Shown: positions 9,100 to 58,829 of the stretch, in pieces
How positions within the stretch are numbered: position 1 is the first letter of the stretch
Layout of the letters: every line of letters starts with the position of its first letter
Notes under the pieces: generated by a model
Database searches by the model: none
The model's input: only the letters and a program-made list of their open reading frames with translations
What the model was told of the DNA's origin: nothing
Assembly: GCA_000004695.1 (NCBI GenBank)
Contig: CM000152.2
Span: forward strand, 3,584,001-3,648,000
DNA length: 64,000 bases
Direction of reading: 5' to 3'
From: Dictyostelium discoideum
Taxonomy: Eukaryota
Position numbers and translations under genes: made by a program

Positions 9100-9899
9100 C
9101 TTTTTTTAAGACAATCAAAAAGATGTTGCATCCGATTCTAAAGAAACACCACCAACTCCGCCACCAATTGGTGACGTAGAAGAGGAAGAAGAAAAAGAAG
9201 AAAAAGTTGTTAGTCAAGTTAAAGAAGAAATCAATGAAACTAAATTTGAATCATCGTCATCGTTTGATGAACCAACAACAATAACAAGAACAAATAAAAA
9301 TATTAAACAAAAGAGTATTTCCTTTTTTTTTTTTATTTGTAATGAATTTATAGTGTTGAAGAATTATTATTATCATTTGGAATAGTGATTTCCTATCGAA
9401 AATATTCTCCAAAGTAATTGATTTCCATTTGGACATTTCATCTTGATCAATTTCCATTTCGTCTTCTTTGAGTTTGATTATAGTTACTTCAATTTGTTTT
9501 GACGATTCATAAAGATTGATGAATTGTCTTTTTAAAATCATTTCTATCCTTTTCATCAATCTCTATAAACAATACTTTTAAAATAGTATATTAAATTATA
9601 AATACAATAATCTACCGCTAACTTCTTTTAATTGTTTAGATTTTCTTTGTAATAGCATCCTAATAATATTTTAATTATTAAAAAAAAAAAAAAAAAATTG
9701 GTTAGTTTATATTTTTTAAATTTTTTAAAAAAAAAATTTACTTACAATGAGTCATTGACACGAGATTTTCATAACACCCACTACCTGCATCACCCATTGA
9801 TCTATATGGATTTGGATCAAATTGTTTTCTTTGAGAAGGTGGATTGCTAGTGGTCCACAATAATGACCAGCATCGTGACAAGGTGGATGAATGGCATAA

Positions 9900-10194
9900 A
9901 AGCACGAGTATACCCAGAATCAACGGCGGCACAAACGCTTGTTCTTAATGCTTCTACAACTCTCACTCTTAATGCTTGAGATTTATATGGTGGAATTAAG
10001 CATAGTCTTACTATTTAATGGTCTATCTGCTTTAGACAACGTACACCACCAGCTGGTGATCAGTGAGCTTGTATGAGCAGACCATAGAGCAAACATCTAG
10101 TGGACACTGACCCATTATTGGCAAACAGTTGTCTGACACCAGCATCTTTTAATTCAAGACAAACATTCTTTTTTTAAATTATTAAAAAAAAAAA

Positions 10195-10233
<39 letters not shown>

Positions 10234-10360
10234 TTAATTAAATTTTCTAAAAATACATTTTATACAGTTTTATTTACCTTTAATATTTATTAAATTGAAT
10301 TTATTAATTTTTAATAAATAAATAGCTTTTATTTTGTTAATTATTATTTTTTTTTAGTTA
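9900..10360. mobile_element. Interspersed repeat fragments: a GC-richer module Y (about 10020..10150) followed by an A-tract and a terminal module Z (10230..10360). Unclassified transposable-element remnants.
   Basis: Y matches 23525..23650 at about 80% identity. Z matches 23760..23900 and 16770..16865. These positions are GC-rich islands in AT-rich DNA. Confidence 0.4.
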
Positions 10361-10964
10361 TTTTATATTATTTTCTTTTTTGGTTGGACATATCTTCTTC
10401 TGAAATTGATGTCATCCATTCAATAAAATTACTTTGTGTGTTATTTAATAAATCTTTATCTCCATTTATCAATGATTAAAATGGTGTTGGTGGTGATGGT
10501 CTAGTTACTGTTGAGGTTGAAAGTAAAAATAATACAAAAAATAAAAATAAAAAGTGGGTTTAAAAAAAAAAAAAAATAAAAAAAAAATGAAAAAATGAAA
10601 AAAAAAAAAAAAAATTAAAAAAAATAATAATTTGATCTTGAAAATAAAAAAAAGATGGATCTATTAAATCAAAAAAAGATCCAAAAAAGTTAAAATTGGG
10701 TAAAATTTTCCAGGACAAAAACAAAAATGGTAAAAAAAAAAATTTAATAACAAATAGATTTCTTTTTATTGATTCAAATTTCGGAAAAATGACTAGATGC
10801 CCTACAAAATATAATTAAATAATATATTTAAAAAAAAAAAATAAAAAAATAAAAAAAAAGGTAAAAAATGAATCGAATTTTTTTTTTTTAAAAAATTTTT
10901 TTTTTTTTTTAAATTTCATCTTTTAATATTCTCCAATTAAAATTCACACACACAAAATATTACA

Positions 10965-11273
10965 ATGGGAAAAAGAAAACCAATACCATCAATCAACATT
11001 GGTAATAACCTAAATAAAAAACTTAAATTTTCAAAACAAGATTCAGATCAACAACAACAACAACAACAAGAACAACAACCACAACAACCACAACAACCAA
11101 TTATAAAATATAAATCCAAAAGAGAAAAAGAAATCCACGAAAAGATTGATAAAATTAAATCTGAAAGAAAGTTTATTTATAAAAATGTAATTATTATTTT
11201 TATTATTATTATTTATTATTTATTATTTATTATATTAATTTATTAATTTATTTTATTTTATTTTATTTTATTT

Positions 11274-11343
<70 letters not shown>

Positions 11344-12077
11344 GAATATTTTAAATATAGGCAGAGAGACATGTTAAATTAAGTTTGGAATATGCTGGGT
11401 TGGCATTGAGTTTACCAGCGGTCTTGAAAGACTTACACAGAGCATTGGAAAAATTTGATGCACTTGAGTCCAGTTTGATAGCTGAGCTAGAGTCTTTAAA
11501 AATACCAGTAAAAAATGCCAGTACCATACCAGTTTTGCATCCTCCAATTAACCATGTTAATACAAGTATTGCTACAACTGCTGCTGCCAGTATCAACAAC
11601 AACAACAACAATGATAACACCATTACCACAACCACCACCACCACTACTATCAGCAATGACAATCTTGCTTCAACTACAAATTCTTTACCAGTTAACTCTG
11701 TACCAAGAACCACTGCCACTTTATCAGATGTTAACAGCCTTATTACTGCAACTCTTGGACCCACTACTGCTCCTACTATTGGTTCTTCTGCAACCACTGG
11801 TGATACTACTGCAATTGATGGTACAAACACCAATGTCACCACTGATACTACCACCATAGAAACAACCATGAAGAAAAAAGGCAGACCACCACTTTTTAAA
11901 GAAATTCCAGAAAATTGTTATGTCTGTGGAGTAACCGAAACTCCATATTGGAGAAGAGGTACAGACGAAGGTGTAATGGTTGACCTCTGTAATGCATGTG
12001 GATTGCGTTACATGAAATTAGAAAAGAAAGAGAGACTTTTAAAACAAAAAAATAGTACCAGTAATGTTTTGAACTAA
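10965..12077 (+). CDS. GATA-type zinc-finger transcription factor, 2 exons: join(10965..11186,11361..12077)
   Basis: Exon 2 encodes a C-terminal CYVCGVTETPYWRRGTDEGVMVDLCNACGLRYMK, a C-X2-C-X17-C-X2-C GATA finger. Exon 1 (MGKRKPIP.., poly-Gln) ends at a GTAATT donor. The intron carries a T65 tract and a TATAG acceptor, and the frame is conserved. Confidence 0.7.
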
Positions 12078-12189
12078 CCTCTTTCTAAATCTTTTTTTTC
12101 GTTAGTAATTTATATCAACTTTTTAATCAAATTCATTTTTATACATATTTTTATTAATTTCTTAAAAAAAAAAACAATTATTGTAATAT

Positions 12190-12245
<56 letters not shown>

Positions 12246-12559
12246 ATTTTTAATCTTTAGCATACAAACAATATTTTAAATATTAAAAAATACTACAATT
12301 TTATATATATAAAAAAATCCTTTTTAAATAATTTATTTTTGTAGTATAAAAAAAAAAATAAAAAAAAAATAAATAAAGAAAATAAATTATTTATTTGTTT
12401 GTTATATCTTTTTTTTTTTTTTCTTTTTTTTTTTTTTTTTGAACACAAATAATCTTTATTTTTTAATAATAAAAATAATAATTTTAAATTTAAATTTAAA
12501 TTTTCACTAAATTGTTTCTTAAAATAGGAATACAATTGATATTCAAAGTTAACTGCATA

Positions 12560-13538
12560 TGTTGTAGTGAAAAAAAAAAAAAAATTTCCCCACATCAACA
12601 ATCGGGAATTTTCACAGTAAAATACAATGTATTAAAAAAATGTCAAGCAAATAATAAAAAAAAAAAAAAAAAAAAAAAAAATTAAATAGAAAAATAAGTT
12701 TAATGTAAAGTGAATGTAAATTTTTAGTGGATTTTATCACTACGTAGCTTGACATTTTTTTTTTTTTAAATTTATTTACTTATTTATTTATTTACTTATT
12801 TATTTATTTTTTTATTTATTTTATTTATTTTAATTTATTTTTTTTTTTTTTTTTTTAATAACTCTTAAATCAAATAACCTTCAAATCGAAAAAAAATTTT
12901 AGTTGGTTATCATAGTTTAGTAAAAAAAAAAAAAAAAAAAAAAAAATTTATATCAAAGTTTATAATTTAAAAAATACAATAATGTATATAGATAATAAAA
13001 AATATACATTCCATACACACCAAATGTGTTGTGTCGTTTCATTTTTGAAAGAAAAAAATGAAAATTCCCACTATTACCACCAAACACATTGGCATTCATT
13101 TTTTTTTTATGTCAATAAATTAAATGAATACAAAAAAAACTCACACTCACCACCACACCCACTTCTATATATCAAATTTGTATTGCATTTTTATTTTGTG
13201 TCTTTTCATAATAATAACAAAACACACCAAATGTGTTGTGTCTTTTCATTTTTTAAAACAAAAAATACTATAATTGTATTTATTCTCTAGTGTCGTTTCA
13301 TTTTTGAAAGAAAAAAAGAAAACTCTCAATATTACCCCAAACAAATTGGCATACATTTTATGTCAATAAATTATATGAATACAAATTAAAAAAACTCACA
13401 CCATCTATACATCTTATTTGTATGACATTTTTATGTTGTGTCTTTTCATTTTCCAAACAAAATTCTACAACTGATTTCATTCTCTTGTATCGTTTCATTT
13501 TTTAAAAAAAATAATACATTCACAATAAATAAATAAAA

Positions 13539-13573
<35 letters not shown>

Positions 13574-13840
13574 GATCACGTTCATGTTTATTTTTGAGTG
13601 TTCTATTTATCTATACTAAATTCATGTTAAAAATAAATAAAATTAAATCGTTAAAAAATAAGAAAATTTGAATTTAATTATTCATTTTTTGTAATTGTTT
13701 TTTATATTATTTTTTCTTGCAAGGTGGAATTCCTTAAAATTGGTAAATTCTTAAAAAATGTCAAATGTAAGTATTAAGTATTTTTACTGTGAAAATTCCC
13801 AAAGTTTGTGGGGAAATTTTTTTTTTCCACTCTCTGTATT
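12560..13840. mobile_element. Non-autonomous element, about 1.28 kb, bounded by roughly 90-bp imperfect terminal inverted repeats. It carries an internal array of hairpin repeats.
   Basis: 12560..12650 is the reverse complement of 13745..13835 at about 85% identity (..aaaaatttccccaca..gggaattttcacagtaaaatac..). This TIR is related to the TIR of element 30791..31718. The interior holds three tandem about-230-bp units containing the palindrome cacaccaaatgtgttgtgtc / gacacaacacatttggtgtg. Confidence 0.5.
13005..13500. repeat. Tandem array of three units of the hairpin-repeat family (minus orientation)
   Basis: The unit is ..ccaatgtgtttggtggtaatagtgag..ttcaaaaatgaaacgacac..aaaaaatgaaaagacacaacacatttggtgtg. 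The same family is at 16495..16660, 19296..19330, 21215..21250 and 28420..29130. Confidence 0.7.
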
Positions 13841-14190
13841 GTTGAGTATTTTAAAAAAAAAAAAAAAAAAAAATTAAATAAATAAAAAAAAAATAAAAAT
13901 AGATTGAGAAAGGGGTTTCTGTGCAACATTATAAAAAAAAAAAAAAATTAAATCAATTTTAAATTGAAATTTCATACAAACAAATAATATAATTGTAAAG
14001 AAAAAAATTATTTAATAACATTGATTTAATTACCGCTTCTATTAACAAAAGAAAATTATTTTTTATTTTTGTTTTAATTTATTTTTATTTTTTTTATTTT
14101 TTTTTATTTTAATTTATTTTCTAAATAGATAATATATATATTATAAAATTAAAAATTGATTTAATTTTATAAACAAAAAATTATTTGTTT

Positions 14191-14293: not shown

Positions 14294-15733
14294 TTAACTT
14301 GGATTTAAAAATTCTTGATCAATTAAATTTGTCATTTGGTTGGGTTTCAAATTTAAGATATCAAAATGAATATTAACATTTAAATTTTTATCACATGGAA
14401 TGAAATTTGTTCTATCGTGAATATTTTCAAAATATGGACTTTCCAAAATTTCATTGACTGAATATCTATCTCTTGGATCCCAACATAGCATATTTTTTAA
14501 AAGGTCAATTTGAATTTGATTACAGCCTATAAATGTATTATTAAATGTTGGTTGAAAACTATTTTTTCTATTATATTCCATTAGGAAAAACAATAATTCT
14601 CCTTTTACAACATAAGCTCCTTCTGAAGCTTTTGGTGCACCTATTAATTTATAAATTGATTTCAAATGTTCTTTACCTAAAATTATTTTAAAAAAAAAAG
14701 TAAAAAGAAAATAAAAAAAATTAGAAATTTAAATAAATTAATTTATAATTTAAAATAATTAAATAAATAATAAAATAAAATACAAACTGTTGAAAGATCT
14801 AAATAATCTTTTACCTAACAATAGTTCTGCAAATAAAACACCAGCACCCCAAACATCAGTAGCTTCAGTATATAAAGAATCACCCCAAATTGTTTCAGGA
14901 GCACGATAAGAGTAAGTATTAGTAATATACTCCTTATTGAATAAAAAGGTAGGATCAGTATCTAATAGAAAGCAATTATTAAATTCTGTGAATTTAATAT
15001 TAAAATTTTCATCAACGAAAATTGAGTTTTCTGGATCTAAATCTCTATGGATAACTCCGGCAGAATGCATAAACTTTAAACCCATTAAAATTTCATAGAA
15101 CAATTGGCAAATATCATCTTGATCAAGCATGTTATTAGATATTAAATTCAATAATGAATATTGTGGTTGAATTGATTCAAAATAAAAATCTTCATCATCT
15201 TTTTGTTGAATCAATGTTGAATGTTGTTGTGGATTATCATTTGAACTTATAATTGAATTTAGAATAGATGTCAATGGAGGTTGATATGAATCTGAACATT
15301 TTCTTTTAAAAATACTTTGATAGGTTGAAATATGTTTACCACCTTGGAAAAGATTTTGAAAAATTAAATTTCTAATAATTCTATGGCCATTTAATTCATT
15401 ATCAAACATTCTTTTTGATAGTTTTTTTAAAATTACTCTTTTTTGAGTTTCAAAATTAAAAGCAATAAACATGATACCATTGGTGCCACAGTCTACAATT
15501 GTATTTGGATCAATTAGCATCTTTCTTGGAACAGAGATTGAACGACCATCGGTATAATAAGTTATTGTATCATTTTGATTGGATGGTGTTATTAATGTAG
15601 GTGGTGGTAACATTTGACCTTGGCCATTGCATTTTTTATAATTTTTACCAATATCAATAGTATCACTATTATTTTCAAAATCAAAAATATTATTGTCTGA
15701 ATTATCGTGATTTAGAATATAATAAATATCCAT
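14294..15733 (-). CDS. CMGC-group (MAPK/CDK-like) protein kinase, probably a pseudokinase. Two exons: join(14815..15733,14294..14676), 433 aa.
   Basis: Kinase subdomains are present: VILKKL, HRDLDPEN (D replaces the catalytic-loop Lys), TEF in place of DFG, YRAPE, DVWGAGV. A GTAAAAG donor and a TTTTAG acceptor are present with the frame conserved (..AELLLG|KEHLKS..). Confidence 0.75.
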
Positions 15734-16160
15734 TTTTATTATAATTTGAAAAATATTATATTTAAAATTATTAAAAGTAATAGAATAATAATACAAATAA
15801 TTAAATTATTAATAATAAAAAAAATATAAAAAATAAAAAATTAATTGTAATTGTTTTTATTTATTGTAGGATGTGCAATAAAAAAAAAAAAAATAAAAAA
15901 AATTAAAATTAAATTAAATTAAATTAAATTAAATTAAATTAAATTAAATTAAATTAAATAAATACAATTTAATTGTAATTAAATAATTATAAATAATATG
16001 TGAGACAGCTACAAAAAAAATTAAAAAGAAAGTGGTTAATCAACAAAGTAACCACAATCACACTCACCACCACCACTCAAAAATTACATAGCGATGTTTT
16101 TTTTTTTTTTTTTTTGGTGCATATTTTTTGAATTTTGCTTTTGGGAATGCAAATTTCAAC

Positions 16161-16211: not shown

Positions 16212-16494
16212 AATAGTGCGATATATTATTACTTGGTTTATTGCACTAAATTTTATTATGACAACACTATGACCACAAAAGTTTGTATAACTTAATTTTT
16301 TAATTTTCCATTGTTTTTTTTTTTTTTTTTAAAATTGATGTTTTTATCCTATCAGAGAAAAAATATTTTTTTAATATAAATTAGTATATAAAAATTGAAC
16401 ATTCAAAAATACACAATATGATAAAGAAAATAATTTATCCGTTCTTTTTTTTGAATTTTTTTTTTTTTTTTTGATCTAGATTTACAAATAAAAA

Positions 16495-16660
16495 ATTATC
16501 ATTAAAAAACAAAATATGCCAATGTGTTTGGTGGTAATAATGAGATTTTTCTTTTTTTTTCTTTCAAAAATGAACCGACACGATAGAATGAATTCAATTT
16601 TAGTATTTTTTTCCTTCAAAATTGAAAAGACACAACACATTTGGTGTGTTTTTTATTTTT
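16495..16660. repeat. Solo copy of the hairpin-repeat unit
   Basis: About 85% identical to the units at 28425..28600. Confidence 0.6.
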
Positions 16661-18075: not shown

Positions 18076-19666
18076 TTTTTGAAAATAAAAAAACAAAATT
18101 AGTAAAAATAATTAATTTATTTGTTCATTCATTTATTTTATTTATTTATTAATTTAATTTTTTTTTTTTTTTTTATTTTTATTTTTTTTTAAAAAAAAAA
18201 AAACAACCTACATTCATATGATATGGTGAACTTTTTACTTGTTTTACTATTTTGGTTGACCATATCCCCTGAATTATTTTGATTGGACTAAAAAAAAAAA
18301 ATAAAAAAAAAAAATAAAAAATTGTGAATGATAAATATTAAATATATTATTTTTTTTTTTTTTTTTTTTTAAATAAATAATAATTTAATACAATGTGGTA
18401 ACAATTGTGAATAAAAAAATAATAATTAATTCATTTTATGGTCAAACATCAAAAAATAAAAAATAAAAAAAGATCTGGCCAATTTTTTTTTTTTTTAACG
18501 TTGCGATAACTTTTTTTTTTTTTGATTTTTTTTTTTTTTTTTTTTTTTGATTTTTTTTTTTTTGATTTTTTTTTTTGCTTTTTATAAACTTTTTTTTTTT
18601 TCTCAACGTTTTCTGTATAAATTTTTTAAAAAATTGTTGGTGCAGTTAATTAATAAATAAAAAAATATAAAAAAAAAAAATTTTAGATTATTAATTGTTT
18701 TCTTTTTTTATTTTTATTTATTTTTTTTTTTAAAAAGCTCATTATTTTCTTTAAAAGGATTATAATGAGAATTGGATGGGTGGGAGGGGGTTATATTACC
18801 TATTTTTTAAGAAGATTTACTTTGTTATACCTTTTCTTTCAATGGTAACTATTGATAAAAAAATAAAATTATAATAATAAAATTAAAATTCAAATATTAA
18901 TTTTTTTTTTTTTTTTAATTTTAAAGATTAGTTTATGGTAGAGAAAACTTCCTAAAGAGCAACAAAGGTTCTGATTGGATAAACTTCAATTTACGGCAAT
19001 GGTACTTTAAAGTTTCCAAAAAGATTGTCCCAAAAGGTACGGCAATGGTGCTATTGGAACAAAAATATAACCAGCAACAATAAAAAAAAAATAAAAAATA
19101 AAAAAAAAAATAAAAAAAACTATTTCTTCTTGTGTTTGTTTTATTTATTCCTTTATTACTATACATTTTTTTTATATACCTCTTTGTTTTATTATCTTTT
19201 TTATCATTAAATTAGTGATATAAATCAAATAATAGTTTTATTTTTTTTTTTTTTTTGTTTTTTTTTTTATTATTTTTTTTTTTTTTTTATTACTATACAC
19301 ACCAAATGTGTTGTGTCTTTTCATTTTTCAAACCAACAAATACTGCATTTGCAATAATCTTTTTAATTATGTTGTGTTTATTTTTTTACATTACCAAAAA
19401 TTACTATTTCACCCAAACAGTGGTTGGTAGTGTTGTTATTTTTTTTACTTATATTTTTTTATTTTTTTATTTTTTTAATTTTTTTTTTTATGTGAGAATT
19501 AAATTAAAATACAAAAAAAAAATAAGAATAAAACCATTTTTTGTATATTTTTTCTATTTTCCCACGAAATCACAGAATTGTTGACCCCCAATGAGTGGTT
19601 TTTGTTTTTATAATTTTTTATTTTTTTTTATTTTTTTCAATTCATACACACAAAATAAAATCATAA

Positions 19667-20055: not shown

Positions 20056-20451
20056 ATGGTAAAAAATAGTGAACATCTACCATGGTATTTAGGCAGTGAC
20101 TCTGCAACCGCTGCTTCCACAGCAACTGATGCCACCTCTGCAGATGGTGCCGCCTCTGAAACTGATGCCGCCTCTGCAACTGATACCACCTCTGCAACTG
20201 ATCCCACCTCTGCAACTGATCCCATTGCCACTACCAATACCACCGGCATTACATCCAGTGGTCCTACTACCAACGGTAGAAGAGGTAGACCATATATATC
20301 AACACCACCAAATCGTTGCTATGATTGTGGAAGAACCAGATCTCCATATTGGAGAAAAGGAACCTACAACGGCCAAGTTGTACATCTTTGCAACGCTTGT
20401 GGTTTAAATCATATCAAAATCGCAAAAAAATCATCAGCAATATTTTTGTAA
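20056..20451 (+). CDS. GATA-type zinc-finger protein, single exon, 131 aa
   Basis: Contains CYDCGRTRSPYWRKGTYNGQVVHLCNACGL, a C-X2-C-X17-C-X2-C finger. The N-terminus is built from an imperfect 18-bp (SATDxT)n repeat. Confidence 0.75.
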   Translation: MVKNSEHLPWYLGSDSATAASTATDATSADGAASETDAASATDTTSATDPTSATDPIATTNTTGITSSGPTTNGRRGRPYISTPPNRCYDCGRTRSPYWRKGTYNGQVVHLCNACGLNHIKIAKKSSAIFL

Positions 20452-21401
20452 TTTAAAATCAAAACAATTTTATTTAATTTTACTTTTCAAAAAAAAAAAA
20501 AAAATAATAATAATAATTTGTATTAACAAATAAATAAATAAATAAAAATATAGCAATAAAGATTAAAAATTAAAAACACATAAATTATTTATTTTTTAAT
20601 ATTTCTTTTTTTTATTTATTTATTTTTAATAATTTAAAAATTAATTTTGGATATAATCCACACTTGATCCTGTTGATGTTGCAGTTTTTGCTAAAATGTT
20701 TGTCAATTGTTTTTTTATTTTTTATTTTGTAAATGAGTTATAAAAGCATTTAGAGGTAAATCAATTGTTTTTTTATTTTTTATTTTGTTTTTTTTAAGTT
20801 TTATAAATTTCTATGGGGAGTCGCACAGAAAATAAAATAATAAAAGAAAAATAAAAAAATAAAAAAAAACAAACCCACAAAATTACTTTTCACCACCTTT
20901 AATGCTGAAATTTTTACGTCAGACCCCTTATAAATTTCTTTATTTCTTTATTTATTTTATTTTTTTTAAATATTCATATTAAAAATAAATAAAATTAAAT
21001 CGTTAAAAAATTAAAATAAAAAATTTTGATAAATAATTATTTATCATTCATTTTTTGTAATTGTTTTTTTATTTTGAAGACAACAAAATGGAAGATTTTT
21101 TAAAAAAAAAAAAAAAAAAACCAAAAAAAATTGATTTATTTGGAATATTTTTTTATTTTATTTATGTTTTTTTTATGGAATGTGGGTTTTTTTATTATCT
21201 GTATTTTTTTTCTCTCAAAAAAGAAACGACACTACACATTTGTTGTATGAATTTATAAAACCTTAAAATTAAATATAAAAAAAAAAATAAAAATAAAAAA
21301 AATAAAAATAAAAATTCCCTTTCTAAAGAGTGAAACATTATGTGTCTTTTTTTGTTATTCATCAAATTTTATTTATTTTTTTTTCTATTTTTTTATAATT
21401 A

Positions 21402-22033: not shown

Positions 22034-22608
22034 TCTTGAAAAAATAAAAAAATTAAAAAAAAAAAATTTTTTTTGAAATGATTTTTATCTAAAATATTTC
22101 GAGATTTTATAAAAAAAATTAAACTTTTTTTGATTTTGCAGCGTCACCACTACTATGTAAAATATTTACAATGCATTTACAATGCAATTACATTGTGATT
22201 TGTCTTTAAGTAAATTAACGTATCCCATATTAATTTTATCTATAATCAGAGAGATATAAAACTAATTTTTTTTTTTTTTTATATCTAAAAACTAGGAAAA
22301 AATATTAAAAAATAAAAATAAAAAAATCTTTTTAATTAAAAATATTTATTCGGTCATTCATTTTTCTTTTTTTTTTTTAAAAAAAAAACAATAAATAAAT
22401 AAAGGAAAAAAAGAAATTTATGAAACTTAAAAAAAAAAAGTAAAAAAGTTTTTTTTGGAATTTATTTTTTTTTTTTTTTTATATTTATAATTCAACAATA
22501 AACAAAATCAACAACATAATGTCTAAATGATCAAATAATTCTCTGGGTGAAGATATGGTCAACCAAAATATAAAACAAGTAAAAAAAGTTCAATATAGAT
22601 GTAAGTTG

Positions 22609-23524: not shown

Positions 23525-23900
23525 ATGGTCGTACACCACCAGCTGGTGGTCAGTGACCTAATATGAGAAGACCGCAGTCTACAAATATCTAGCGAACACT
23601 GACCCATTATTGTCAAACGGCCGTCGGACACCAGCCTTTTAATTCATTACCACCTGGCATTGGCAAAAGTGATCTATAAGTTAAAAATTTTTAACTTATA
23701 GATCTATAAGTTAAAAATTTTTTTTAAATTGTTTAAAAAAAAAATAAAAAAAAAAATTAATTAAATTTTCTAAAATACATTTTATACAGTTTTATTTACT
23801 GTTGTAGGGAATTTTTTTTGAAATTTCGCTTTCTAAACGGCAGTGAATTTTTACACTAAAATACACTGTTTATACCTTTATTTATTAAATTGAATTAATA
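23525..23900. mobile_element. Repeat modules Y and Z carrying a solo 78-bp TIR (23789..23866) of the TTAA-type element. A 34-bp perfect palindrome lies at 23659..23692.
   Basis: Y matches 10020..10150 and Z matches 10230..10360. The solo TIR is identical in sequence to 30791..30866. Confidence 0.45.
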
Positions 23901-24518
23901 AATGTATAACTTTTTTTTATTTTTTTTAATAAATTTTTTTTTTTTTTTTTTTTTTTTATATGGATTGATGTATAAACAAAATAATTCAAAATTGTAAAAT
24001 TAATTATTAAAATTAAAAATAAAAATAATAAAAAATAATAAAAATTAATAATTAAAATTAAAAATAAAAATAATAAAAATATGAATTTTATTACTAAATC
24101 TTTTTTTTTTTTTTTTTTTAATTTTTATTCCCATTTTTCCTTTTTTTTTTTTTTTTTTTAGATTTACTGTACTTTACTTTATATTTGTCGTCAATGCATC
24201 ACTTTGAAAATTTAAAATACATAACAAAAAAAAAAAAAAAATTAAACAGTGCAGGAATTGATTTTTCAATTAAAAAAAAAGAAAAATCTCACTATTTCCA
24301 TGATTATTGTTTCTATTAATACTATAACCCCATTATTATTACCATTTATATTAATATTATTATAAATTGTTTTTTTTTTTTTTGTTCACCCCCAATAAAT
24401 TTATCACAAAATATGTCCTCATTCATTAGTTATTAAAGAAACTAAAAATAAAATAAAACAATAAATATAATTAAAATAACAAAATAAAATAAAATAAAAT
24501 AAAATAAAATAAAATAAA

Positions 24519-28120: not shown

Positions 28121-28419
28121 TGGTTAAATAAATAATAAAAAAAAAAAAAAAAATATAATCCAGGTTTAATTAATTTTAAAACAAATTATTTATTCCATCC
28201 ATTTTTTTTATTATTTTATTAGTATAGATAAATAGAACACTCAAAAAATTAACAAAATGATATAAAAAATAAAAAGAAATGAAGGTGACCACTTTATTTT
28301 TAAATTTTTAAATTTTTTTTTTATTTTTTTTTTTTTATATATATTTAATTATATTTCTATAAATATATATATGAAAAATATAAATAAAATGATTTTATTT
28401 ATTTATTGAAGTATAAAAA

Positions 28420-29130
28420 AATATATGAGAATGTGTTTGGTGGTAATAGTGAGGGTTTTCTTTTTTTTTCTTTCAAAAATAAAACGACACTAGAGAATGA
28501 ATACAATTTTAGTATTTTTTGTTTTAAAAAATGAAAAGACACAGCACATTTGGTGTGTATTGGGTGTGTGTTTTTGTTATTGTTATGAAAAGACAAACAT
28601 AAAAATGCCATACAAATTTGTTTTTAGAAGTGGGTGTGGTGGTAAGTGGGTTTTTTATATGTATTTATATTCATATAATTTATTGATTATAAAAAAAATA
28701 TTCCAATGTGTTTAGTGGTAATAGTGGGAGTTTTCTTTTTTTTCTTTCAAAAATGAAACGACACAAGAGAGTGGGTTTAGTTGTGCAATTTTGTTTAAAA
28801 AATGAAAAGACAAAAAATAAAAATTACATACAAATTAGATGTATAGAAGTGGGTGTGGCGGTAAGTGTGAGTTTTTTATTTGTATTTATAATTTATTGAT
28901 ATAAAAAAAATATATGATTATTTGTTTGGTGGTAATAGTGAGGATTTTCTTTTTTTTTGTTACAAAAATGAAACGACACTAGAGAATGAATACAATTTTA
29001 GTATTTATTATTTTAAAAAATGAAAAGACACAACACATTTAGTGTTTGTGGAATGTGGGTTTTTTTATTATCTGTATTTTTTTTCTTTCAAAAAAGAAAC
29101 GACACTACACATTTGTTGTATGTATTTTAT
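28420..29130. repeat. Tandem array of about 3.5 units, period about 250 bp, of the hairpin-repeat family (plus orientation)
   Basis: The motif ..gtgtttggtggtaatagtgag..caaaaatgaaacgacac..aaaaaatgaaaagacacaacacatttggtgtg recurs at about 28425, 28705 and 28925. A partial unit lies at 29090..29130. Confidence 0.65.
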
Positions 29131-29814
29131 TATCTAGATAATATTTATTTTATATTATAAATCTAAAGAAATGAACTCTAAATAAAAATTAATAGAGTAT
29201 ATGTGTTTGGGGTGAATAATATAATTGTTTTTTATTTTATTTGAATGGGTACTTGTGTTGTTTTTTATTTTTTTATTGATAAAAATAGATACTATGAGAT
29301 TAATTTTATTTATTTTTTTTTTTTAATTTTTTTTTTTTATTTTTTTTATATATTAATAAAATTATCTAACTATTTATTTATTATTTTTTATTTTGGACTA
29401 TAGATTTTTTTTTTTTTGGGAAAAATAAGAATTTAAAAAAAAGAAAAAAAGAAAACAAAATAAATTAATAAAATGAAAAAAATAAATAATAACTAAAACA
29501 GCTAAAACTAAATTAAATAATATATTATATAAATAATAATTATAAATAACAACCCAACTAAATCTAGTTAGATTTATTTTTGATTGTTTTTTTTTTTAGG
29601 GGTTTATTGCCATTCTTTAAAATTTCTATTTATTTTTTAAAAAATTAAAATAAAAAAAAAATATCTTGGGACGAGCAACACTGGTATTAGCATGGTAAAC
29701 CTAATGTATTTTCAAACTCTCATATTTTTGTTCTATAACAATGGAAACATAGAAATATTTTTATGTAGGTTCCATCCGAATTTTATTTACTTAATTTCTG
29801 TATTATTTATTTAT

Positions 29815-30606: not shown

Positions 30607-30790
30607 TCTTGAAAAAATAAAAAAATTAAAAAAAAAAATTTTTTTTGAAATGATTTTTATCTAAAATATCTCGAGATTTTATAAAAAAAATTAAACTTTT
30701 TTTGATTTTGCAGCGTCACCACTACTATGTAAAATATTTACAATGCATTTACAATGCAATTACATTGTGATTTGTCTTTAAGTAAATTAA

Positions 30791-31009
30791 TGTTGTAGGG
30801 AATTTTTTTTGAAATTTCGCTTTCTAAACGGCAGTGAATTTTTACACTAAAATACACTGTTTATACGTAGTGTAAAAATTCACTAAAATTTTTTTTTTTT
30901 TTTTATAAATTAAAAACAATTTATTTAATCAAAATAATAAAAAAACTAATTTTAAACAATTATTTGTTGTTTAAGAATTAAATAACAATTTAAATTGTTA
31001 GATTTGAGC

Positions 31010-31047
<38 letters not shown>

Positions 31048-31334
31048 TTTTTTTTTTATTTTTTATTTTTCTTTTTTTTTTATTTTTCATTTTTTTTTTA
31101 TTTTTTATTTTTTTTTTTTATTTTTTTTTTTTCATTTTTTTTTTTATGTAACGAAGACACAAAAATAAGTTAATATTAAATAAGTGAACAAAGACACTAA
31201 TTATAGTTGACCCGCATTTAAATAATAATAATAATAATAATAATTCTATTAACTCGAGTTTATAATTATAAATAATATAAATACTAAAAATAATTATATA
31301 AACAATAATGAATACCATAATTAAAATATAAACC

Positions 31335-31379
<45 letters not shown>

Positions 31380-31470
31380 ATTTTTTTCAATTTTTTTTTA
31401 TCGAACAATTTTATTTTATTCCCCAAAAATGAAAACAATCGATAAAAAAAAAAATTGAAAAAAATAATTG

Positions 31471-31502
<32 letters not shown>

Positions 31503-31718
31503 GCAAACTAAATTTTTTTGTTATAAAAAATAAATAACAAGCAAATAACTGAATAAAATTGGTTTTTTATTTTTCTGATTAAATAAATTGTTTTTTAATT
31601 TAATTATAAAAAAAAAAAAAATTTAGTGAATTTTTACACCATGCATAAACAGCGTATTTTAGTGTAAAAATTCACTGCCGTTTAGAAAGCGAAATTTCAA
31701 AAAAAATTCCCCACAACA
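30791..31718. mobile_element. Non-autonomous DNA-transposon-like element, 928 bp, with 76-bp terminal inverted repeats and a TTAA target-site duplication. No ORF.
   Basis: TIR-L 30791..30866 is tgttgtagggaatttttttt..aatacactgtttatac and TIR-R 31643..31718 is its reverse complement (2 mismatches). Flanking TTAA lies at 30787..30790 and 31719..31722. The uninterrupted paralogous site taaatTAACgtatccc is at 22209..22222. Confidence 0.75.
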
Positions 31719-31901
31719 TTAACGTATCCCATATTAATTTTATCTATAATCAGAGAGATATAAAACTATATTTCCCTAATTATAGATCAAACAAATAAGA
31801 ATCAATAATCTAATTCACAAATTCAATTTTAAAAAAAGGATAAAAAAATCAGGCAATAATAATTATGGGATGTGTAAAACATTCACAACAATTATATTTA
31901 T

Positions 31902-40078: not shown

Positions 40079-40289
40079 ATCAAATCATTCATTATTAAAT
40101 AAAGTAATAATAAAAATAAAAATAAATAAAAATAAATAAAATATTAATTTACCACAAACAAAATCTTTTTTTTTTTTTTTTTTTATTATTTGTTTGTGTA
40201 TTTGTGAAAAAAAACCAAAGAAGTATAATAAAATCATTTTTTACAACATCATTGATTATTTTATGTATACCAAACAATAACACTATGGG

Positions 40290-40480
40290 ATTTTTAACAC
40301 TTATTTATAAAAACAAATTCGCAGTGAGTTTTCACTCTAAAATGCACTGTTTAAATACCCTAGATTTTTTTTTTTTATTTTTTATAATTATAAAACAATC
40401 TATTTAACCAAAAAAAAACTAATTTTAAATAGTCAAAATTAAATAATAATTTTCTTTTAAGTTTGGCGCCAAATTTTTTT
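40290..40480. mobile_element. Diverged left-end fragment of the TTAA/TIR element family
   Basis: ..ttcgcagtgagttttcactctaaaatgcactgtttaaatac.. plus internal sequence match 30830..31010. Confidence 0.4.
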
Positions 40481-40483: not shown

Positions 40484-40735
40484 TTACATGGTACAGTGTG
40501 ATACACCATCACCTGAATCCATAACGATACCAGTGGTACGACCAGATTCATATAATGATAATACATCTTGAATGGCGACATACATAGCTCGAGTGGTGAA
40601 AGTTTCAAACATAATTTGGGTCATCTTTTCTCTATTTGCTTTTGGATTTAATGGTGCTTCAGTTAAGAGAACTGGACGCTCTTCTGGTACAACACGTAAT
40701 TCGTTGTAGAAAGTATGATTTAATAACAATAACAA
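40484..40735 (-). pseudogene. Actin gene fragment (residues about 88-170 only)
   Basis: [75 protein letters not shown] is nearly identical to conserved actin. There is no start codon and no remainder of the gene. Confidence 0.85.
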
Positions 40736-40905: not shown

Positions 40906-42047
40906 CGATTGGTGTTATAATCTGAAGTTTATTAAATTTCTATTTGAATCCATAACCTATTCTTATTTTGTAACTGATTCAGGTTTGGAACATTATTAAA
41001 ATAGAGTTTGTGAAGTTAAATAATTTATCGCTGAAGTTGTAGTTCAAATCTGACAACCAAAATTTATATTTTTTTTTAATTTTTTATTAGTTTTTTAACA
41101 TCGATTTAATTTTATTTATTTTTAATATGAATTTAATATAGATAAATAGACCATGATTAGATTGATTCGTTTTATGGTTGTCAAATTTTTTTATTTTGTT
41201 AACGTTGTGATACTTTTTTTTTTTTTTTTTAGGTTTCTTGTTCTTTTTATAAATTTTTTTTTATTTATTTCAATTTCCAGAATTTTATTTTTTCAACAAA
41301 AATAGGATTCACTCCAATAAAATATATTTTTTAAAAATATATATTTCTTAATTCTTACAATTAATAAGTTGAAAAAAAAATTAAAAATTAAAAATTAAAT
41401 CCAAATAAAAACTATTTTTAGAAATAAAAAAAATAAAAATAAAAATTAAATAATTAAGATTAAAAATTAAAAACACAAAAAAAATTTATACTTTTTTTAA
41501 TTTTTCTTTTTTTAATTATTTTAAATAATTTAAAAAATAATTTTGAATGTGACCAACACTTGGTCCCGTTGATGTTGCTGTTTTTGCTATTAATTTTGAT
41601 TTATTTTTTTTATTTTTTTTAAAGTTTATTTAAAATTTCCTCATTTATGTTTATCACTTTTATTTTTTTTTTTTACATATAATTTTTTTTTTCAAGAGAA
41701 GTAATTTATTTTTTTTTTTATATCTAAAAACTAGGAAAAAATATTAAAAAATAAAAATAAAAAAATCTTTTTAATTAAAAATATTTATTCGGTCATTCAT
41801 TTTTCTTTTTTTTTTTTAAAAAAAAAACAATAAATAAATAAAGGAAAAAAAGAAATTTATAAAACTTAAAAAAAAAAAGTAAAAAAGTTTTTTTTGGAAT
41901 TTATTTTTTTTTTTTTATATTTATAATTCAACAACAATAATCAAAATCAACAACATAATGTCTAAATGATCAAATAATTCTCTGGGTGAAGATATGGTCA
42001 ACCAAAATATAAAACAAGTAAAAAAAGTTCAATATAGATGTAAGTTG

Positions 42048-42078: not shown

Positions 42079-42749
42079 GAAAAAATAAAAACAAATAAAA
42101 AATAAATAAAAATAAAAAATAAATAAAATAAAAAAAAAATAAATAAATAAATAAAATAAATAAATAAATAAATAAATAAATAAATTAAAAAATTAATGTA
42201 TGAATTAGTAAATAAATAAATTAATATTTTTACTAATTTTTTTTTTTTTTATTTTCAAATTAGAGAATGATCATTTGGTATTACAGAGAAACTAGAAATC
42301 CAGCGATAGACTTGTTCAAAATCTTTTTTAAGCCAATACAACGCTCAATTAAATTATTATTTTTTAAAATCACATATTCACAACTATACAGTGTCAATAA
42401 TCAAAGCGCTTTGAAAATTTAAAGTACATAACAAAAAAAAAAAAAAAAATTAAACAGTGCAGGAATTGATTTTTCAATTAAATGAAATTAAAAAAAGAAA
42501 AATCTCACTATTTCCACGATTATTGTTTCTATTAATACTATAACCTCATTATTATTATTACCATTTATATTAATATTATTATAATTATTTTTATTATTTT
42601 TTTTTTTTTGTTCACCCCCAATAAATTTATCACAAAATATGTCCTCATTCATTAGTTATTAAAGAAACTAAAAATAAAATAAAACAATAAATATAATTAT
42701 AATAACAAAATAAAATAAAATAAAATAAAATAAAATAAAATAAAATAAA

Positions 42750-46671: not shown

Positions 46672-49406
46672 TTAAAATTTTTTACCTATAAATTTTTTCA
46701 CACGAAAAGGTATTTTAAAGTAATAGGCAAGAGCACCGATAGCAAGAGCACCACCAACACTACCAATTGTAGAACCTATTATTAAACCATTTGATGGTTT
46801 GGATGATTTAGTTTCAACATCTCTTTGACTAACGTTTGGTGATGGAGATAATTTAATTTCTTCAATTGTGACATTATATTGAAATGATGTTGAGTTAAAT
46901 AGGAGATATAATACTCCTGATGTATTTTTCACACTTGAACCGGAATGGCATGATAAACAATCAGTATTACTATTTGTAATATTAGTTTCACTTGAATCAC
47001 TATCATCAAGTATTTCATTTGGTGATAAACTACATTCTAAATTACATGAAAGAGGAACAGTTTCTGATGAAACTGTTAAGCTTGCATTGAGAATATCTGT
47101 AAAACTATAACCACGAATTATTGCTAAAATACCTTTTTCAATTTTATTTTCAATGGTTGGAATTTCTGAAATCATTGGTTTTATATAGGTCAATGTTGTA
47201 CTTGGTCCTGAACGAACTCCAATGAATGTTGTAACAAAGAGTGAACTCTCTCTACTTTCATCTCTAACTATTAATATCTTTTCATCTTGAGCAAATACTG
47301 TGGTATTTTTATTATTTGATTTTACATTAACTTTGAATTCTTTGTCACTTGTCAATAAATTCTTACCAGAAACTGTGATAAGACCTCCACAAGCAAGTGT
47401 TTTATTATCTTTATTTGTTATACGATAAATGACAGGAGGTAATGTTAAATAAAATAATGAATCCATATAATTACCATCTACAGTAATATTAATTGGGCCA
47501 TTTTCATATGAATCCAATATTTTAATAGTTAATTGATGATCTTCTAATTCTTGAATTTCTGATGAAATGTCACTACCATTTAAATAAACTTTAATTAATG
47601 ATGTTGAATTACCAAAATTATTACCGTGTAATTCAATATTAGTTCCATCATCAGAAATTGTACGATTCTCAACTTCTGGTGGTGCATATGAGAATTGATC
47701 ACTGACTGTCTCTGAGTTTAATTTGAATATAAATTGTTTATTAATACCAGTACCGTATGGTGTTGGACATGTTGTTTCATAGTAACTAGAATTTGATGAT
47801 GGTATTGAACATGGTGAGGCTGATGATGAATCACCAACAGTAATACTTGGTGCTGATGAACTAATTGTACAATCCATATAATATATTTCAATATTTAATA
47901 TTCCATTTGATACTGTTGGTCTATTAATTACATTTACTGATAATGATGCTGAAATTGAAAGTGTTTTTGCGGTAATACCAGAACGAGTGAAATTAATATT
48001 AAATGATCTACATCTTAAATGAGGTAATTCAAATGTTACACTCTTTTCATCAGATGATGATACATTAAATTGGCTAATGTTTGTATTTTTAATTCCATCA
48101 CCATATAATTGAATGGATGATTCGTTATTTGTACCAAGATTTGTACCAATTAATGTAACGATACCATTAGAATATGATCCACTTGATAATGTCGGAATAT
48201 TATATGTAAATGATACACCATTAGGACTTGTTGAATCACAACCACCGAAATTAACGTTAACTGGTAAGTTTTTACCACCCAATTCATTTGCATCCAATTT
48301 ACATTCCAATTCAGTTGTTGTTGATTTAATAAATTTACATACTTTATCACCAATTGTAATTGATGGTGTCAATGATGAATTTAAAGTTGAAGATAATTTT
48401 TCACCTTTAATTGTAACAATACCATCTAAATGATTTGATACTGATGATATTGATGTTATTATTGCTGGGAAACAATGAATATAATTCTTTTCTATTGAGA
48501 CCTCATCTACGGTAATATTAACAGACATTGGACCGGGATCAACTCTATTATAGTTATTCACTTGAATTTGTTTATGATTTACTGAAATGATAAAATTGGG
48601 TTGGTCAATACCATCAAAAGAAACCTTAACCAAGTCTTTATCTGTAAAGAAGTTATCACCATTAATTGTTATTATTTGTTTTGATGAGTCTGAGACAGAG
48701 CTTGATATTATAGGCGATTCGTATGAAAATGGTACAGGATTATCCCCAGTTTCATCATAGTACAACCTAAATTTTCCGGATCCTGGTGGAAATGTTACAG
48801 TAATATTATTACAGTCAAAAGATGGATCAGAGAAATTACCTTTAACAACAAAAGGTTTATTTACATCAATGGAATTAATAAGGAAATTAGGACCACCAAA
48901 TAATCTTAAATATGAGCCAGTAATGACTATATCTTCACCAGATGTTTTTGGTTTTTTACTATATTTCAAATTGTATACTTTTGGATAATATACTAAACCC
49001 GAAGCATCAAATGTACAATCCTCAACAGTATTTGATTTATCTCTAACACATACCTTACTGTCTATACTACCCCATAATCTTGAGAATGGTTCATCTGAAT
49101 GGAATAAACAATGTCTCTCTCCATCAACTAGAGAACAATTGAAATAATTTGGTGCCATTTCAGTTCTGGGTTCTTTTTCGTTTTTATACAAAATTAAACG
49201 GGTAGAATATGGGAGATTACTATTAAAAATTAATGTAAATGATTTATCATCATATATTGCATCTAATAAAAAAAATTAATTACATAAACAAATTATTATA
49301 AAGAATTAAAAATTTAATGATACTTACCTATTGGTGTTGGAGGATTCATTGAATATCCTGATATAAAGAACAAAAATAAAATCAGTAATATTATTTTCTT
49401 TTCCAT
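46672..49406 (-). CDS. tgrC1: Tgr-family, tgrC-like type I membrane glycoprotein, 889 aa. Structure is join(49328..49406,46672..49262). It is the partner of the divergent tgrB-like gene.
   Basis: Exon 1 encodes [27 protein letters not shown] (GTAAGT donor). Exon 2 is an 839-aa open frame with IPT/TIG-like repeats, the [15 protein letters not shown], and the 14-aa tail [14 protein letters not shown]. The symbol is tentative. It is chosen because this is the only intact divergent B/C pair in the window, and that architecture is known for D. discoideum tgrB1/tgrC1. Confidence 0.75.
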
Positions 49407-49929: not shown

Positions 49930-52441
49930 ATGAAAGTAATATATATTTATTTGTTATTATTATTAGTTTGTAAATTTTTATTTGTTAAATCAAGTTGCTC
50001 TTTAAAAGTTGGAAAAATAGAATGTACAAAAGAATTAGAAACGTTTTTATTATATAATGAAACAGTTGTCAATGTAAAAATGGATACAAATGGAGTAAAA
50101 TATTATTTTAATGCACTCGAGTTTCCTTACAAGAATCTGTTATGCGATTTAAATATTGATATTAAATTCACACCAGAAATCCCATCATTCCCAAATATAC
50201 CTACAACAGGTGGAGACTTCGGGTTCACCTTCAACTTTCCTTGCGACTATAGGCGAAGAGTCAAACGAATAGAAATAGAAAGAACTATATTATCTCTCAG
50301 TTTTGATACAAGCAAAAATCAGTTCGTTACTTACTTGAATCCAGGGTGTGGTCCTTTCAATATTAGTAGTAGTGGGATTCAGATTTTGAGTACAACTTAT
50401 GAAACTGGTGCCATACCCAATGTACCAATTCTCGATGATGATAAAGGTATTTTAACTATTCAAGGTAGTAATCTCTACAATACATCAATTAAAATTTATT
50501 CAAATAACATTCTTAAAGACACCAACCCTAGTGGTGCACTAGATGCTTCCCATTCTTCTGTCACATTCTCCGCTGAAGAATTTTTAACCCCAAATAATTG
50601 GACAATTGAAGTCTCAATATGTGGCTCATTTTATAAGAGCTATTCCTTCCCATATTTTCCAAAGCTCGATAAAATGGAGGGGGTACTTAATGATAATGGT
50701 GGTAATATGGTATTTACTGGAAAGCATTTAAGACCAAAACACAATGTTACTGGTACTTTTGGTAATAAAACTATTGAGTGTCTCACATCCAATTCTTCAA
50801 AAAGCATAACATGTACCATTCCAAGTCGTAAAAACTATGGTTTTCTTGGTTATGATATTCCTGTAACAATTACTGTAAGTAGGATACAATATATATATTA
50901 TAAATACATATTGTTATCATATAACATTACTAATTATTTTTTAAATAATATTTTATTAATAGATTGACGGTGAATATAAATCAAATACAATTAAAATATC
51001 TTATGATCTTCCATTGATTCAAAGTGTTTCACAAAGGGGTAATTCACAGATTTTCGATGTGACCGGTGTGTATTTTTCTGGTGTTAAGAATATGACTGTA
51101 ATTACTGGTAAAAACATGAAAACTGATATTATCCAAAAGAAAACTGCAACATTGGAAGAACCTGGATTTTTTATTGAAAGTAATTATACCATTTTTATAT
51201 TCCTACCAAATAATACTCAACCTGGTTTTATGAACCTTGTTGTTGGTGACGGTGGTAGTGAAACATTTACATCTCCAAGATATAATTTCAAGATCACTCC
51301 AACTATTACTGCTGGCCAAACCTTCAACTCAACTACAAGTGGTAATGATTTAGAAATTAAAGGCATCTTTATGAGAACTGTTGATTCTGATGGTAGAGAT
51401 GTTCCACTAACAGTCAATAGTGGGTCTGGTGGTCTTGTTTGCAATCCATTAAAAGATGGTGATGGTTTATTATTCACCTGTGTTCTAGGACCTGGTTTCG
51501 GTTCAAGCCATACAATGAACGTTTACTATAATCTTATACCCATTGGATCATTTACCGTTAGCTACAATCCTCCATACCTTGGCACAAGTGAACAAGAAAA
51601 AGATGGGACCATTAAAATGAATGGTAAGGACTTAGGGGAATCTGTTAAGGATTCAATTATGACCGTTGTTTATTCTGATGGTAATACAGTAAATGGAACC
51701 GTAATTAAAAGTAGTCATACTTCTCTTATATTTAGGTATCCTATAGGCAATAGAAACACTGCAAGCTATATATTCCAACTTGGTGATCAAAAGAGTAATA
51801 AGGCAGGTCCATTCACTTTGAAACCTATTATTGAAAACACTGATCCTGCTGTACCATGTGGCGGTGGAGTGGTTACTATCAATGGTCATTACTTTTTTAA
51901 CTATACCAAAGATACCACAACTATTACCATTGGTAAAGTACCATGTAATATTTCTTCAATTAGTGAAACAACCATTGAATGTGTAATTGTACCAAATCTT
52001 AGATCTCTTTCTCCATACTACACATCTGGCACTAAACCATTAGTAATCAGTAGCTCAAATCCTGGTACTGAAAAGGTCTACCAATTGACACCTGCAGGTC
52101 TAAACTATAAGTTTGCACCACCAACCATTACAAATACATCTGCAATTGATCAAACCGCTTTAATTACTATATATGGTACATCATTTGGTGATGCAAATCT
52201 TGAAATTCTAATCAATGATAAACCATGTACACAACCTGAAATTAACATTCACACCTATTCTAGTTTAACCTGTAATGTAACCAACTATGATGAAATGAAA
52301 ATATATAACTACTCTAATACTAAATTCAATATTAGTATCTCTGTTGATGGTCAGTACTTTATTGCTGATATTTTCCAATTTAAATGTAAGTTACATACAA
52401 TCATATCATTCTCTATCTTATTATTTATTACTATTGCTGTA

Positions 52442-52479
<38 letters not shown>

Positions 52480-53269: not shown

Positions 53270-53300
<31 letters not shown>

Positions 53301-53770
53301 ATTTGGCACAGAAAAATAGAAGACTCAAAAATAATAAAAAAAAAATATTCAATATTATAATAAATTTATTTGAATAAAAAAAACGTTATTAATTTTTTTT
53401 TATTATTTTTCATTTATTTTTTTTAATCTTGGTCAAAAAAAAAAAGCATTTGGTGATCCATGGAACAATTTTTGCAAAATCAAAAAAAAAAAAAAATAAA
53501 AATATAAAAAAAGATATTTATTTTAAAAAAAAAATATCCAACAAAAAAACAAAAATTGTAATTTTTTTTTTTATTTTTTTTGATATACTATTGTTATGGG
53601 TAAAAATATTGTGTTTATTTGTTTTTTTTTTTTTTTTTTTTTTTTTTGATATACTATGGGTAAAAATTTGAAAAGGTACACTGTTTTTTACTATGTTTTT
53701 TATAACTTTTTTTTTTTTTCACCCATTTTTTTTTATATGTTATTAATGTTTTTTGACTTTTTTTTTTTTT

Positions 53771-58450: not shown

Positions 58451-58829
58451 CACAAAATCAACAAAAACAATAACAAATAATTATAAAATTTGATTTGATT
58501 AATAATAAATTTTAAAAAAAAAAAAAAAAAATTTTTACACTTCAACCAAATCTAATTTTATAAAAAATAAAATAAATTCAATTATTTTTAATAAGAATTT
58601 AGTATAGATAAATATACACAAAATGATATTAAAATTTAAAAAAAAAAAATGAATGTAATCATTCTATTTTTTTATTAATTTTTTTTTTTTTTATTTATAT
58701 CGATATAAACAATTTTGAAAACAAAGGAATGGAATATGGTTCTGATTAATTTTTTTTGTTTTAATATTAATTTTTTATTCATAAAAAAAAAAAAAAATAA
58801 AAAAAAAATAAAGATAAAAATAAACTTTT

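Follow-up and report, generated by a model that had tools for sequence, protein, structure and literature searches.

A candidate decayed transposon copy and its putative passenger repeat block at the tgrB1/tgrC1 allorecognition locus of Dictyostelium discoideum

The locus and the element

We analysed a stretch of 64,000 nucleotides of Dictyostelium discoideum DNA (contig CM000152.2, positions 3,584,001 to 3,648,000; hereafter the window) and, within it, an interval at 12560-13835 that is bounded by inverted repeats and filled with a shorter repeat of another kind (hereafter the element). An open reading frame (ORF) at 14759-15796 (minus strand) is 100% identical to the D. discoideum AX4 kinase DDB_G0280643. 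Another, at 46672-49191 (minus strand), is 99% identical to LagC/TgrC1 and lies head-to-head with a tgrB-type gene at 49930-52447, and window positions 4188-25824 are 99% identical to a 21-kb stretch of a lab-strain chromosome 3 assembly (L006). Together, these identities mark the window as the tgrB1/tgrC1 allorecognition locus on chromosome 3 of D. discoideum AX4. A study of 2025 describes this locus as a hotspot at which local duplications, inversions and recombination are frequent, and detected there no enrichment of transposable elements (TEs) and no associated motif (PMC12745789). Self-comparison of the window revealed many segmental duplications. The G+C content of the window is 23%, and the element sits in a 2.2-kb gap between convergent genes, a GATA-factor gene ending at ~12106 and the kinase gene ending at ~14296, in an intergenic background that is otherwise 85-90% A+T. 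No tRNA genes were found in the window, which makes a TRE-type retrotransposon context unlikely.

For comparison we used nine loci beyond the window, ~190 kb in all. L001 and L003 come from divergent D. discoideum strains; L007 and L008 (non-hotspot) and L010 (hotspot) are further DNA of the L003 strain, and L009 is 15 kb from the left of the window. L002, L004 and L005 come from sister species, and the orthologous loci of strains and species alike were retrieved by way of the kinase protein. From left to right, the element reads:

12560-12652, plus strand: left terminal inverted repeat (TIR), with TGTTGTAGTG, an A15 run, TTTCCCCACA, the core GGGAATTTTCACAGTAAAATAC (12604-12625) and the motif M1, AAAAAATGTCAAG (12636-12647)
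12653-12715, plus strand: an A26 run and a unique 'loop' piece, of which 12676-12725 is 98% identical to L010 10568-10617
12716-12753, minus strand: inner inverted copy of the right subterminal region, with GTGGATTTTATCAC, TACGTAG and CTTGACATTTTTT, the reverse complements of M2 and M1
12754-12958, plus strand: T-rich low-complexity DNA (TTTA repeats), then segment P (~12858-12950), which is conserved in the L001 orthologous block only
13000-13510, plus strand: U units at 13000-13218 and 13219-13459 and a stub at 13457-13510 (nhmmer E 8.5e-57, 5.6e-64 and 3.3e-05)
13511-13573, plus strand: A-rich spacer including an A30 run
13574-13753, plus strand: S module (13574-13652, core GAGTGTTCTATTTATCTATACTAA; nhmmer E 2.3e-16) and tail, with the right boundary of the composite at ~13755
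13754-13835, minus strand: right TIR, with M1 in direct orientation (13754-13765), CTGTGAAAATTCCC, TGTGGGGAAAT, a T10 run and CCACT

Over its 1.28 kb the longest ORFs are two of 102 amino acids each, both of low complexity. The 102-residue ORF inside the units had no homologue in a protein search.

The two ends form a cognate pair related to a recently mobile element

Positions 12575-12625 pair with the reverse complement of 13778-13826 such that 46 of 52 aligned columns match, and the arms of the element diverge by 12%. The local score of this pairing was 69, against 18.9 +/- 3.1 in shuffled arms (maximum 33; z ~16), and among 1000 random pairs of window segments lying 1.2 kb apart only two scored as high or higher. 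A previous description made from the letters of the window alone (the sequence-only reading) had put the inverted ends at roughly 90 bp; inverted copies they are, over only ~50 bp, 10 bp of which are poly-A. The same reading had related the ends to the TIR of a second element in the window, and this relation was borne out:

30791-31718, plus strand (30787-31722 with TTAA): young related element (the TTAA element), 928 bp, with 114-bp TIRs that differ by 5 mismatches and a TTAA duplication

The left end of our element opens with TGTTGTAGTG at 12560 and carries its core GGGAATTTTCACAGTAAAATAC 44 nt further in, where the TTAA element has its core at 43 nt. Common to both are the terminal TGTTGTAG, the motif AAATTTC at an offset of ~21 and a core of the form G(G/T)GAATTTT(C/T)ACA(G/C)TAAAATAC at an offset of 43-44. 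When up to 4 edits were allowed, matches to GGGAATTTTCACAGTAAAATAC were limited to its own partner end and to two ends of the TTAA family (23843 and 30834). Either end of the element scored only 25-36 against the TIR of the TTAA element (best match 21-29 bp), compared with the score of 69 between the two ends. Since their likeness to one another so far exceeds their likeness to the TTAA element, the two ends are, by this measure, a cognate pair belonging to a distinct subfamily.

The TTAA element lies within one copy of a segmental duplication of 94-98% identity. TTAA stands on both sides of the filled copy, and the paralogue holds the empty site at 22214-22221, where GTAAATTAACGTATCCC is uninterrupted. 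The TTAA duplication together with this precise empty site shows that 30791-31718 is a genuine, recent insertion of a mobile element. A profile built from six ends matched those six only in the window, at 12560, 13821 (minus strand), 23801, 30792, 31717 (minus strand) and 40285, the left end of the element being matched over 12560-12647 with E 9.5e-13; it matched no end in the nine other Dictyostelium loci. Pfam scans of 18 of the longer ORFs of the window revealed no transposase domain. Two of the remaining ends have surroundings of their own. The solo left end at 23800-23875 lies in a 676-bp stretch (23526-24201) that is missing from a paralogue of 92-98% identity (42405-42409) and that also contains a perfect 34-bp palindrome at 23671-23704. 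The degraded left end at 40285-40372 adjoins a putative actin-like pseudogene fragment at 40487-40730 (minus strand), its translation being judged by eye.

The subterminal regions of the element are more intricate. M1 (AAAAATGTCAAG) occurred four times in ~170 kb: at 12636 (plus), 12748 (minus) and 13754 (plus), and in the L001 orthologous block. The reverse complement of the inner inverted copy at 12716-12753 agrees with the inner TIR of the TTAA element (TACGTAGTGTAAAAATTCACTAAAAT) at 24 of 29 positions, counted by eye, and fuzzy motif searches returned a 17-mer match to window positions 30867-30883 with 3 substitutions. The layout of the ends would fit a long (~195 bp) structured TIR whose right side has been partly deleted, and would equally fit a block of ~1.1 kb lying within a miniature inverted-repeat transposable element (MITE) of ~160 bp. 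As a separate observation, the 98% match of the loop piece (12676-12725) in L010 lies near a GPR180-like gene fragment, in another context, where the norm between strains is ~80%.

The interior is a composite that also occurs without the ends

The interior had been described as three units of roughly 230 bp. The units are real, but there are two full ones followed by a stub of 54 nt. The segments 13031-13268 and 13290-13517 are 76% identical, and each U unit alternates GTGTCTTTTCATTTT and GTGTCGTTTCATTTT motifs, with a CA-rich patch (CTCACACTCACCACCACACCCAC). The 20-mer CACACCAAATGTGTTGTGTC had 8 matches in the window at up to 3 mismatches, against 0.01 expected. It had been reported as a perfect 20-bp palindrome present in all three units. 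However, its reverse complement differs from it, the two strands of one 20-mer having been listed, and what remains is an inverted repeat of just 5-6 bp (AACACA/TGTGTT) around a 5-nt loop; moreover, the element contains only two occurrences (13016 and 13223). Tandem Repeats Finder missed the U arrays, which have diverged too far and contain indels. Neither the unit motif nor the S core turned up in exact-pattern scans of JGI metagenome contigs.

Outside the element, a profile search confirmed the array and the solo copies of the units that had been reported, with refined coordinates. Thus the array placed at 28420-29130 is present, but it spans 28401-29118 and comprises ~3.3 rather than 3.5 units. 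The further copies in the window, and the copies of S, are:

28195-29118, minus strand: U-then-S composite without TIRs, ~3.3 U units (28401-29118) and S (28195-28270)
16366-16651, minus strand: U-then-S composite without TIRs, 0.6 unit (16505-16651) and S (16366-16430)
19295-19376, plus strand: U fragment
21201-21257, minus strand: U fragment, with the variant 20-mer TACAACAAATGTGTAGTGTC, as at 29101-29120
S copies in the window: 13574-13652, 16366-16430, 28195-28270, 41098-41153, 53281-53333 and 58576-58634
S copies outside the window: L001 14395, 15097 and 15599; L007 3219-3296; L010 13609

The composite at 28195-29118 abuts a truncated tgrB-like paralogue ending at 28109, and the TIR profile had no match nearby. 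That at 16366-16651 lies upstream of the kinase gene DDB_G0280643, a position that is occupied in L001 and L003 too. The fragment at 21201-21257 shares a private 20-mer variant with 29078-29133; the occurrence of TACAACAAATGTGTAGTGTC at both sites identifies it as the paralogous edge of a segmental duplication (21.2-22.3 kb and 29.1-30.8 kb).

Wherever U exceeds fragment size it is followed by an A-rich spacer and then by S (~80 bp) in the same orientation. This was seen in five composites (the element, the 28-kb array, 16.4-16.7 kb, L001 and L010), and pairwise comparison showed them to have in common a core equivalent to ~12990-13755. The left edge of the composite varies and is truncated within the array, whereas the right edge is constant and, in the element, coincides exactly with the start of M1 and the TIR. 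Only one composite of the five is flanked by TIRs, and U units are absent from all three other loci of the TIR family in the window. A retroposed origin of the interior was rejected, poly(A) being absent at the expected junction.

S (TATCATTTTGTGTATTTTTGAGTGTTCTATTTATCTATACTAAATTCATATTAAAAAT) is also dispersed alone, including at the gene-dense non-hotspot locus L007 (3219-3296). One S copy lies ~170 bp upstream of a SET-domain gene at a non-hotspot locus of another strain, and three follow closely on the downstream side of tgrB1 or of tgrB-like fragments. The window contains one further repeat, of 18-bp period (CTCTGCAACTGATGCCAC; 6.9 copies), at 20100-20224 within a small annotated gene.

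Comparison between strains and species

In L001 and L003, as in AX4, U units lie both upstream and downstream of the kinase gene. L001 15101-14129 retains M1 and shares 80% identity with 12749-13773. This block also has a possible degraded TIR core (GTATATGTAGTGATAAAATTC compared with GTATTTTTACTGTGAAAATTC), while the outer TIR and the left end are missing. That L001 keeps the orthologous block, M1 and perhaps the core indicates that the insertion is older than the divergence of these strains. Identity between the last AX4 unit and its orthologues is 93%. The orthologous site holds 2.2 units in AX4, ~0.8 in L001 and ~1.3 in L003. Within AX4 the composites carry 2.2, 3.3 and 0.6 head-to-tail units of ~230 bp, with 76-93% identity. 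The pattern of unit number between strains fits unequal exchange or slippage.

An extra inverted unit adjoins the kinase flank in L001 and in L003. In L003, 14884-17984 (window 9782-12224), a segment with the GATA gene and a DnaJ gene, is inverted relative to AX4 and L001; unit copies in both orientations lie on either side of it. No U units were found in L007 and L008, which together supply 44 kb of non-hotspot DNA from the L003 strain, or in the 15 kb to the left of the window (L009); another part of the hotspot of the L003 strain (L010) does contain them.

The three sister-species loci (D. cf. discoideum, D. citrinum and D. dimigraforme) contained neither units nor TIRs. Homology to AX4 ends there at 13840-13872, just beyond the right TIR; the boundary in L002 was placed by eye at ~13835, counting a shared TGTAT. 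In L002, L004 and L005 (~11700-14000) the neighbours that come after the kinase gene are a paralogous kinase and a TIG/ComC gene, whereas in D. discoideum they are the repeat block and the GATA gene.

Origin of the element

The results presented above suggest a model, in which our confidence is evenly poised, whereby 12560-13835 is an old, immobile copy of a non-autonomous TIR transposon with a passenger U-then-S block that has spread locally without transposition. The element would be an ORF-free TIR DNA transposon copy of the same family as the TTAA-inserting 30791-31718, presumably mobilised once, in trans, by a family transposase encoded outside the window. Its interior (tandem ~230-bp U units, A-rich spacer and ~80-bp S) would be a passenger and a separate repeat of the chromosomal neighbourhood; without transposition, the composite would spread by segmental duplication and gain or lose units through unequal exchange or replication slippage. 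The element is judged old from the 12% divergence of its arms, its damaged terminus and its lack of a target-site duplication. Both ends probably derive from one former transposon, to which the composite would belong as cargo or as a later insertion, and the element probably has no present function. The sequence-only reading had the anatomy largely right. Its MITE-like interpretation holds in that the element is TIR-bounded, ORF-free and kin to a mobile TTAA inserter, but not in the amplification of a satellite by transposition. Nor do we find one MITE family with an amplified satellite that also forms TIR-less arrays, since the units are a separate module, TIR-flanked in one composite of five and lacking at three TIR loci.

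Several observations weigh against this model. The right terminus lacks the terminal TGTTGT, having CCACTCTCTG in place of the expected CCACTACAACA, with ~6 nt gone or replaced. No target-site duplication was found at the flanks (...GCATA followed by TGTTGTAG, and CCACT followed by CTCTGTATTG); the closest TTAA sites are 7 and ~20 nt off, and the element itself has no flanking TTAA. The two outer copies of M1 (12636 and 13754) are in direct orientation, unlike in a simple TIR, a picture further complicated by the extra inverted copy at 12716-12753. Despite the interior block, the TIR profile found no end in L001 or L003, and on the outgroup side the end of the TIR is a synteny break, not an insertion site, the other flank not being syntenic. 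Neither a second copy of this TIR subfamily nor a clean empty site was found in the window and the nine loci, and the Dictyostelium DNA examined, ~250 kb in total, comes mostly from this same hotspot. Finally, the interior lies between two direct copies of TTAAAAAA(A)TGTCAA (12630-12650 and 13748-13768).

These direct repeats would be accounted for by a nested mosaic, in which a TTAA-family MITE of ~160 bp was split by the later arrival of a ~1.1-kb hotspot-duplication block (loop, T-rich DNA, P, U and S), in which case the 1.28-kb interval never moved as a whole, nor did the units ever form part of a transposon. Such a history would agree with the right boundary of the composite, which equals the M1 start exactly in three independent contexts (AX4 element, AX4 array and L010), with the four composites of five that lack TIRs and the TIR-family loci that lack units, and with the local duplications and insertions known at the locus (PMC12745789). 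However, a duplication of 14-17 bp fits no known Dictyostelium insertion process for a block of this sort, and the junction has no poly(A). Furthermore, the L001 block adjoins M1 and a possible remnant of the core, which implies that block and right end stood together in the common ancestor, and the inner inverted copy at 12716-12753 is left unexplained. We consider the nested mosaic possible but rather doubtful. It is very unlikely, in our judgement, that chance alone placed two solo TIR remnants of separate origin on either side of a repeat block unconnected with them. Solo or partial family ends do occur in the window (23800-23875 and 40285-40372) and the region is heavily rearranged, but the two ends have in common a subfamily-specific A-run, TTTCCCCACA and GGGAATTTTCACAG, all missing from the other four ends, and they are correctly oriented, outer ends outward, 1.2 kb apart. 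With six ends in 64 kb, we estimate that ~5% of ends would have a partner in the correct orientation no more than 1.3 kb away, even without the further demand that the subfamilies agree.

A further alternative is that the U units are retained for a function, as small-RNA precursors or as clustered cis-regulatory sites. Every unit retains the CA-rich patch and an ACACACC...GTGTTGTGT motif within an A+T-rich background, and parts of the units are ~90% identical over copies and strains. The CA/GT-rich patches (13140-13165 and equivalents; CTCACACTCACCACCACACCCAC, ACACACC/GTGTTGTGT) presumably resemble the G-box or CAE sites bound by GBF in late promoters. A precedent for small RNAs exists in the microRNAs (miRNAs) derived from the transposon thug-S in D. 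discoideum (PMC4894637, PMC6161686). Nevertheless, the structured small-RNA unit that had been proposed drew no support from folding, covariation, Rfam or known miRNAs. Ten unit segments, folded on both strands, gave z-scores of -2.5 to +0.2 and folds that differed from copy to copy, with no stable or shared structure. The consensus of nine copies from three strains contained two 7-bp hairpins with 0 compensatory changes, at a consensus energy of -5.7 kcal/mol (per 100 nt). Rfam returned no match at gathering score and nothing relevant at E<=5, and none of 29 published D. discoideum miRNA sequences (PMC6161686, PMC4894637) was found in the element at up to 3 mismatches, the single match being a low-complexity chance match outside it. 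Moreover, the position and orientation of the units relative to genes are inconsistent, and the units are absent from the three sister-species loci. A function of the U units is very unlikely, and both functional readings of the earlier note, the satellite-amplifying MITE family and the small-RNA-like unit, are at best weakly supported.

Repeats and rearrangement at the hotspot

It is conceivable, though we regard it as highly speculative and very improbable, that U-then-S and the TTAA-family MITEs are unannotated, D. discoideum-specific repeats that are concentrated in the hotspot and fuel the duplications and inversions of its allorecognition genes. Two hints point this way: units are present in hotspot DNA of three strains and in none of the 44 kb of non-hotspot DNA or the sister loci, and inverted unit pairs lie beside the L003 inversion and the kinase-side homology break of L001 and L003. 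If this were true, dispersed direct and inverted homology would be the mechanism sought, and not found, by the 2025 study (PMC12745789). The repeats were also considered as markers of duplication breakpoints in the window, and this was rejected: 5 of 68 endpoints lay within 100 bp, against 5.9 expected (P = 0.72).

Taken alone, a degenerate copy of a non-autonomous transposon and a short tandem repeat of variable number are a small addition to the known repeats of a well-studied genome. For work on tgrB1/tgrC1 there is modest value in the fact that a TTAA-inserting MITE family occupies four or more sites in the window, with a clean and recent insertion among them, alongside the recurring U-then-S module. 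The U-then-S module and the MITE family may escape TE annotation based on proteins or on Repbase. Such repeats confound alignments, and they could serve as markers for dating local duplications.

Comparison with known systems

The DDT, thug and Tdd families are low-copy DNA transposons of D. discoideum with transposases unlike known families, and thug-S, which is repetitive, is a source of small RNAs (PMC5633606, summarising Glockner et al. 2001). They share their organism with the element, which may or may not belong to one of them. A string search of the literature with six diagnostic 14-22-mers gave no match, and a literature search that did not reach Glockner 2001, Avesson 2012 or the genome paper yielded no DDT or thug sequences or structures.

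The piggyBac superfamily and its MITEs resemble the family in the exact TTAA duplication, which is made by the 928-bp relative and not by the element. Typical piggyBac ends are CCC...GGG. The termini of the family are instead TGTTGTAG...CTACAACA, and the 18 Pfam-scanned ORFs of the window include no transposase. Minisatellite, or variable number tandem repeat, arrays resemble the U units in that these are head-to-tail and vary in number, from 0.6 to 3.3 among paralogues and also between strains. However, the U arrays are very short, always tied to S and confined to a few sites within tens of kb.

MITEs and other non-autonomous TIR transposons with internal tandem repeats offer a further comparison. 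The element differs from them in that it lacks a target-site duplication, its right terminus is incomplete and no further copies with the same ends were found in the window and the nine loci; its internal repeat also exists apart from the ends, which is unusual for a MITE family. It resembles them in its size of 1.28 kb, its lack of an ORF, its TIRs and its variable subrepeats, and its relative in the same window has both a clean target-site duplication and an empty site.

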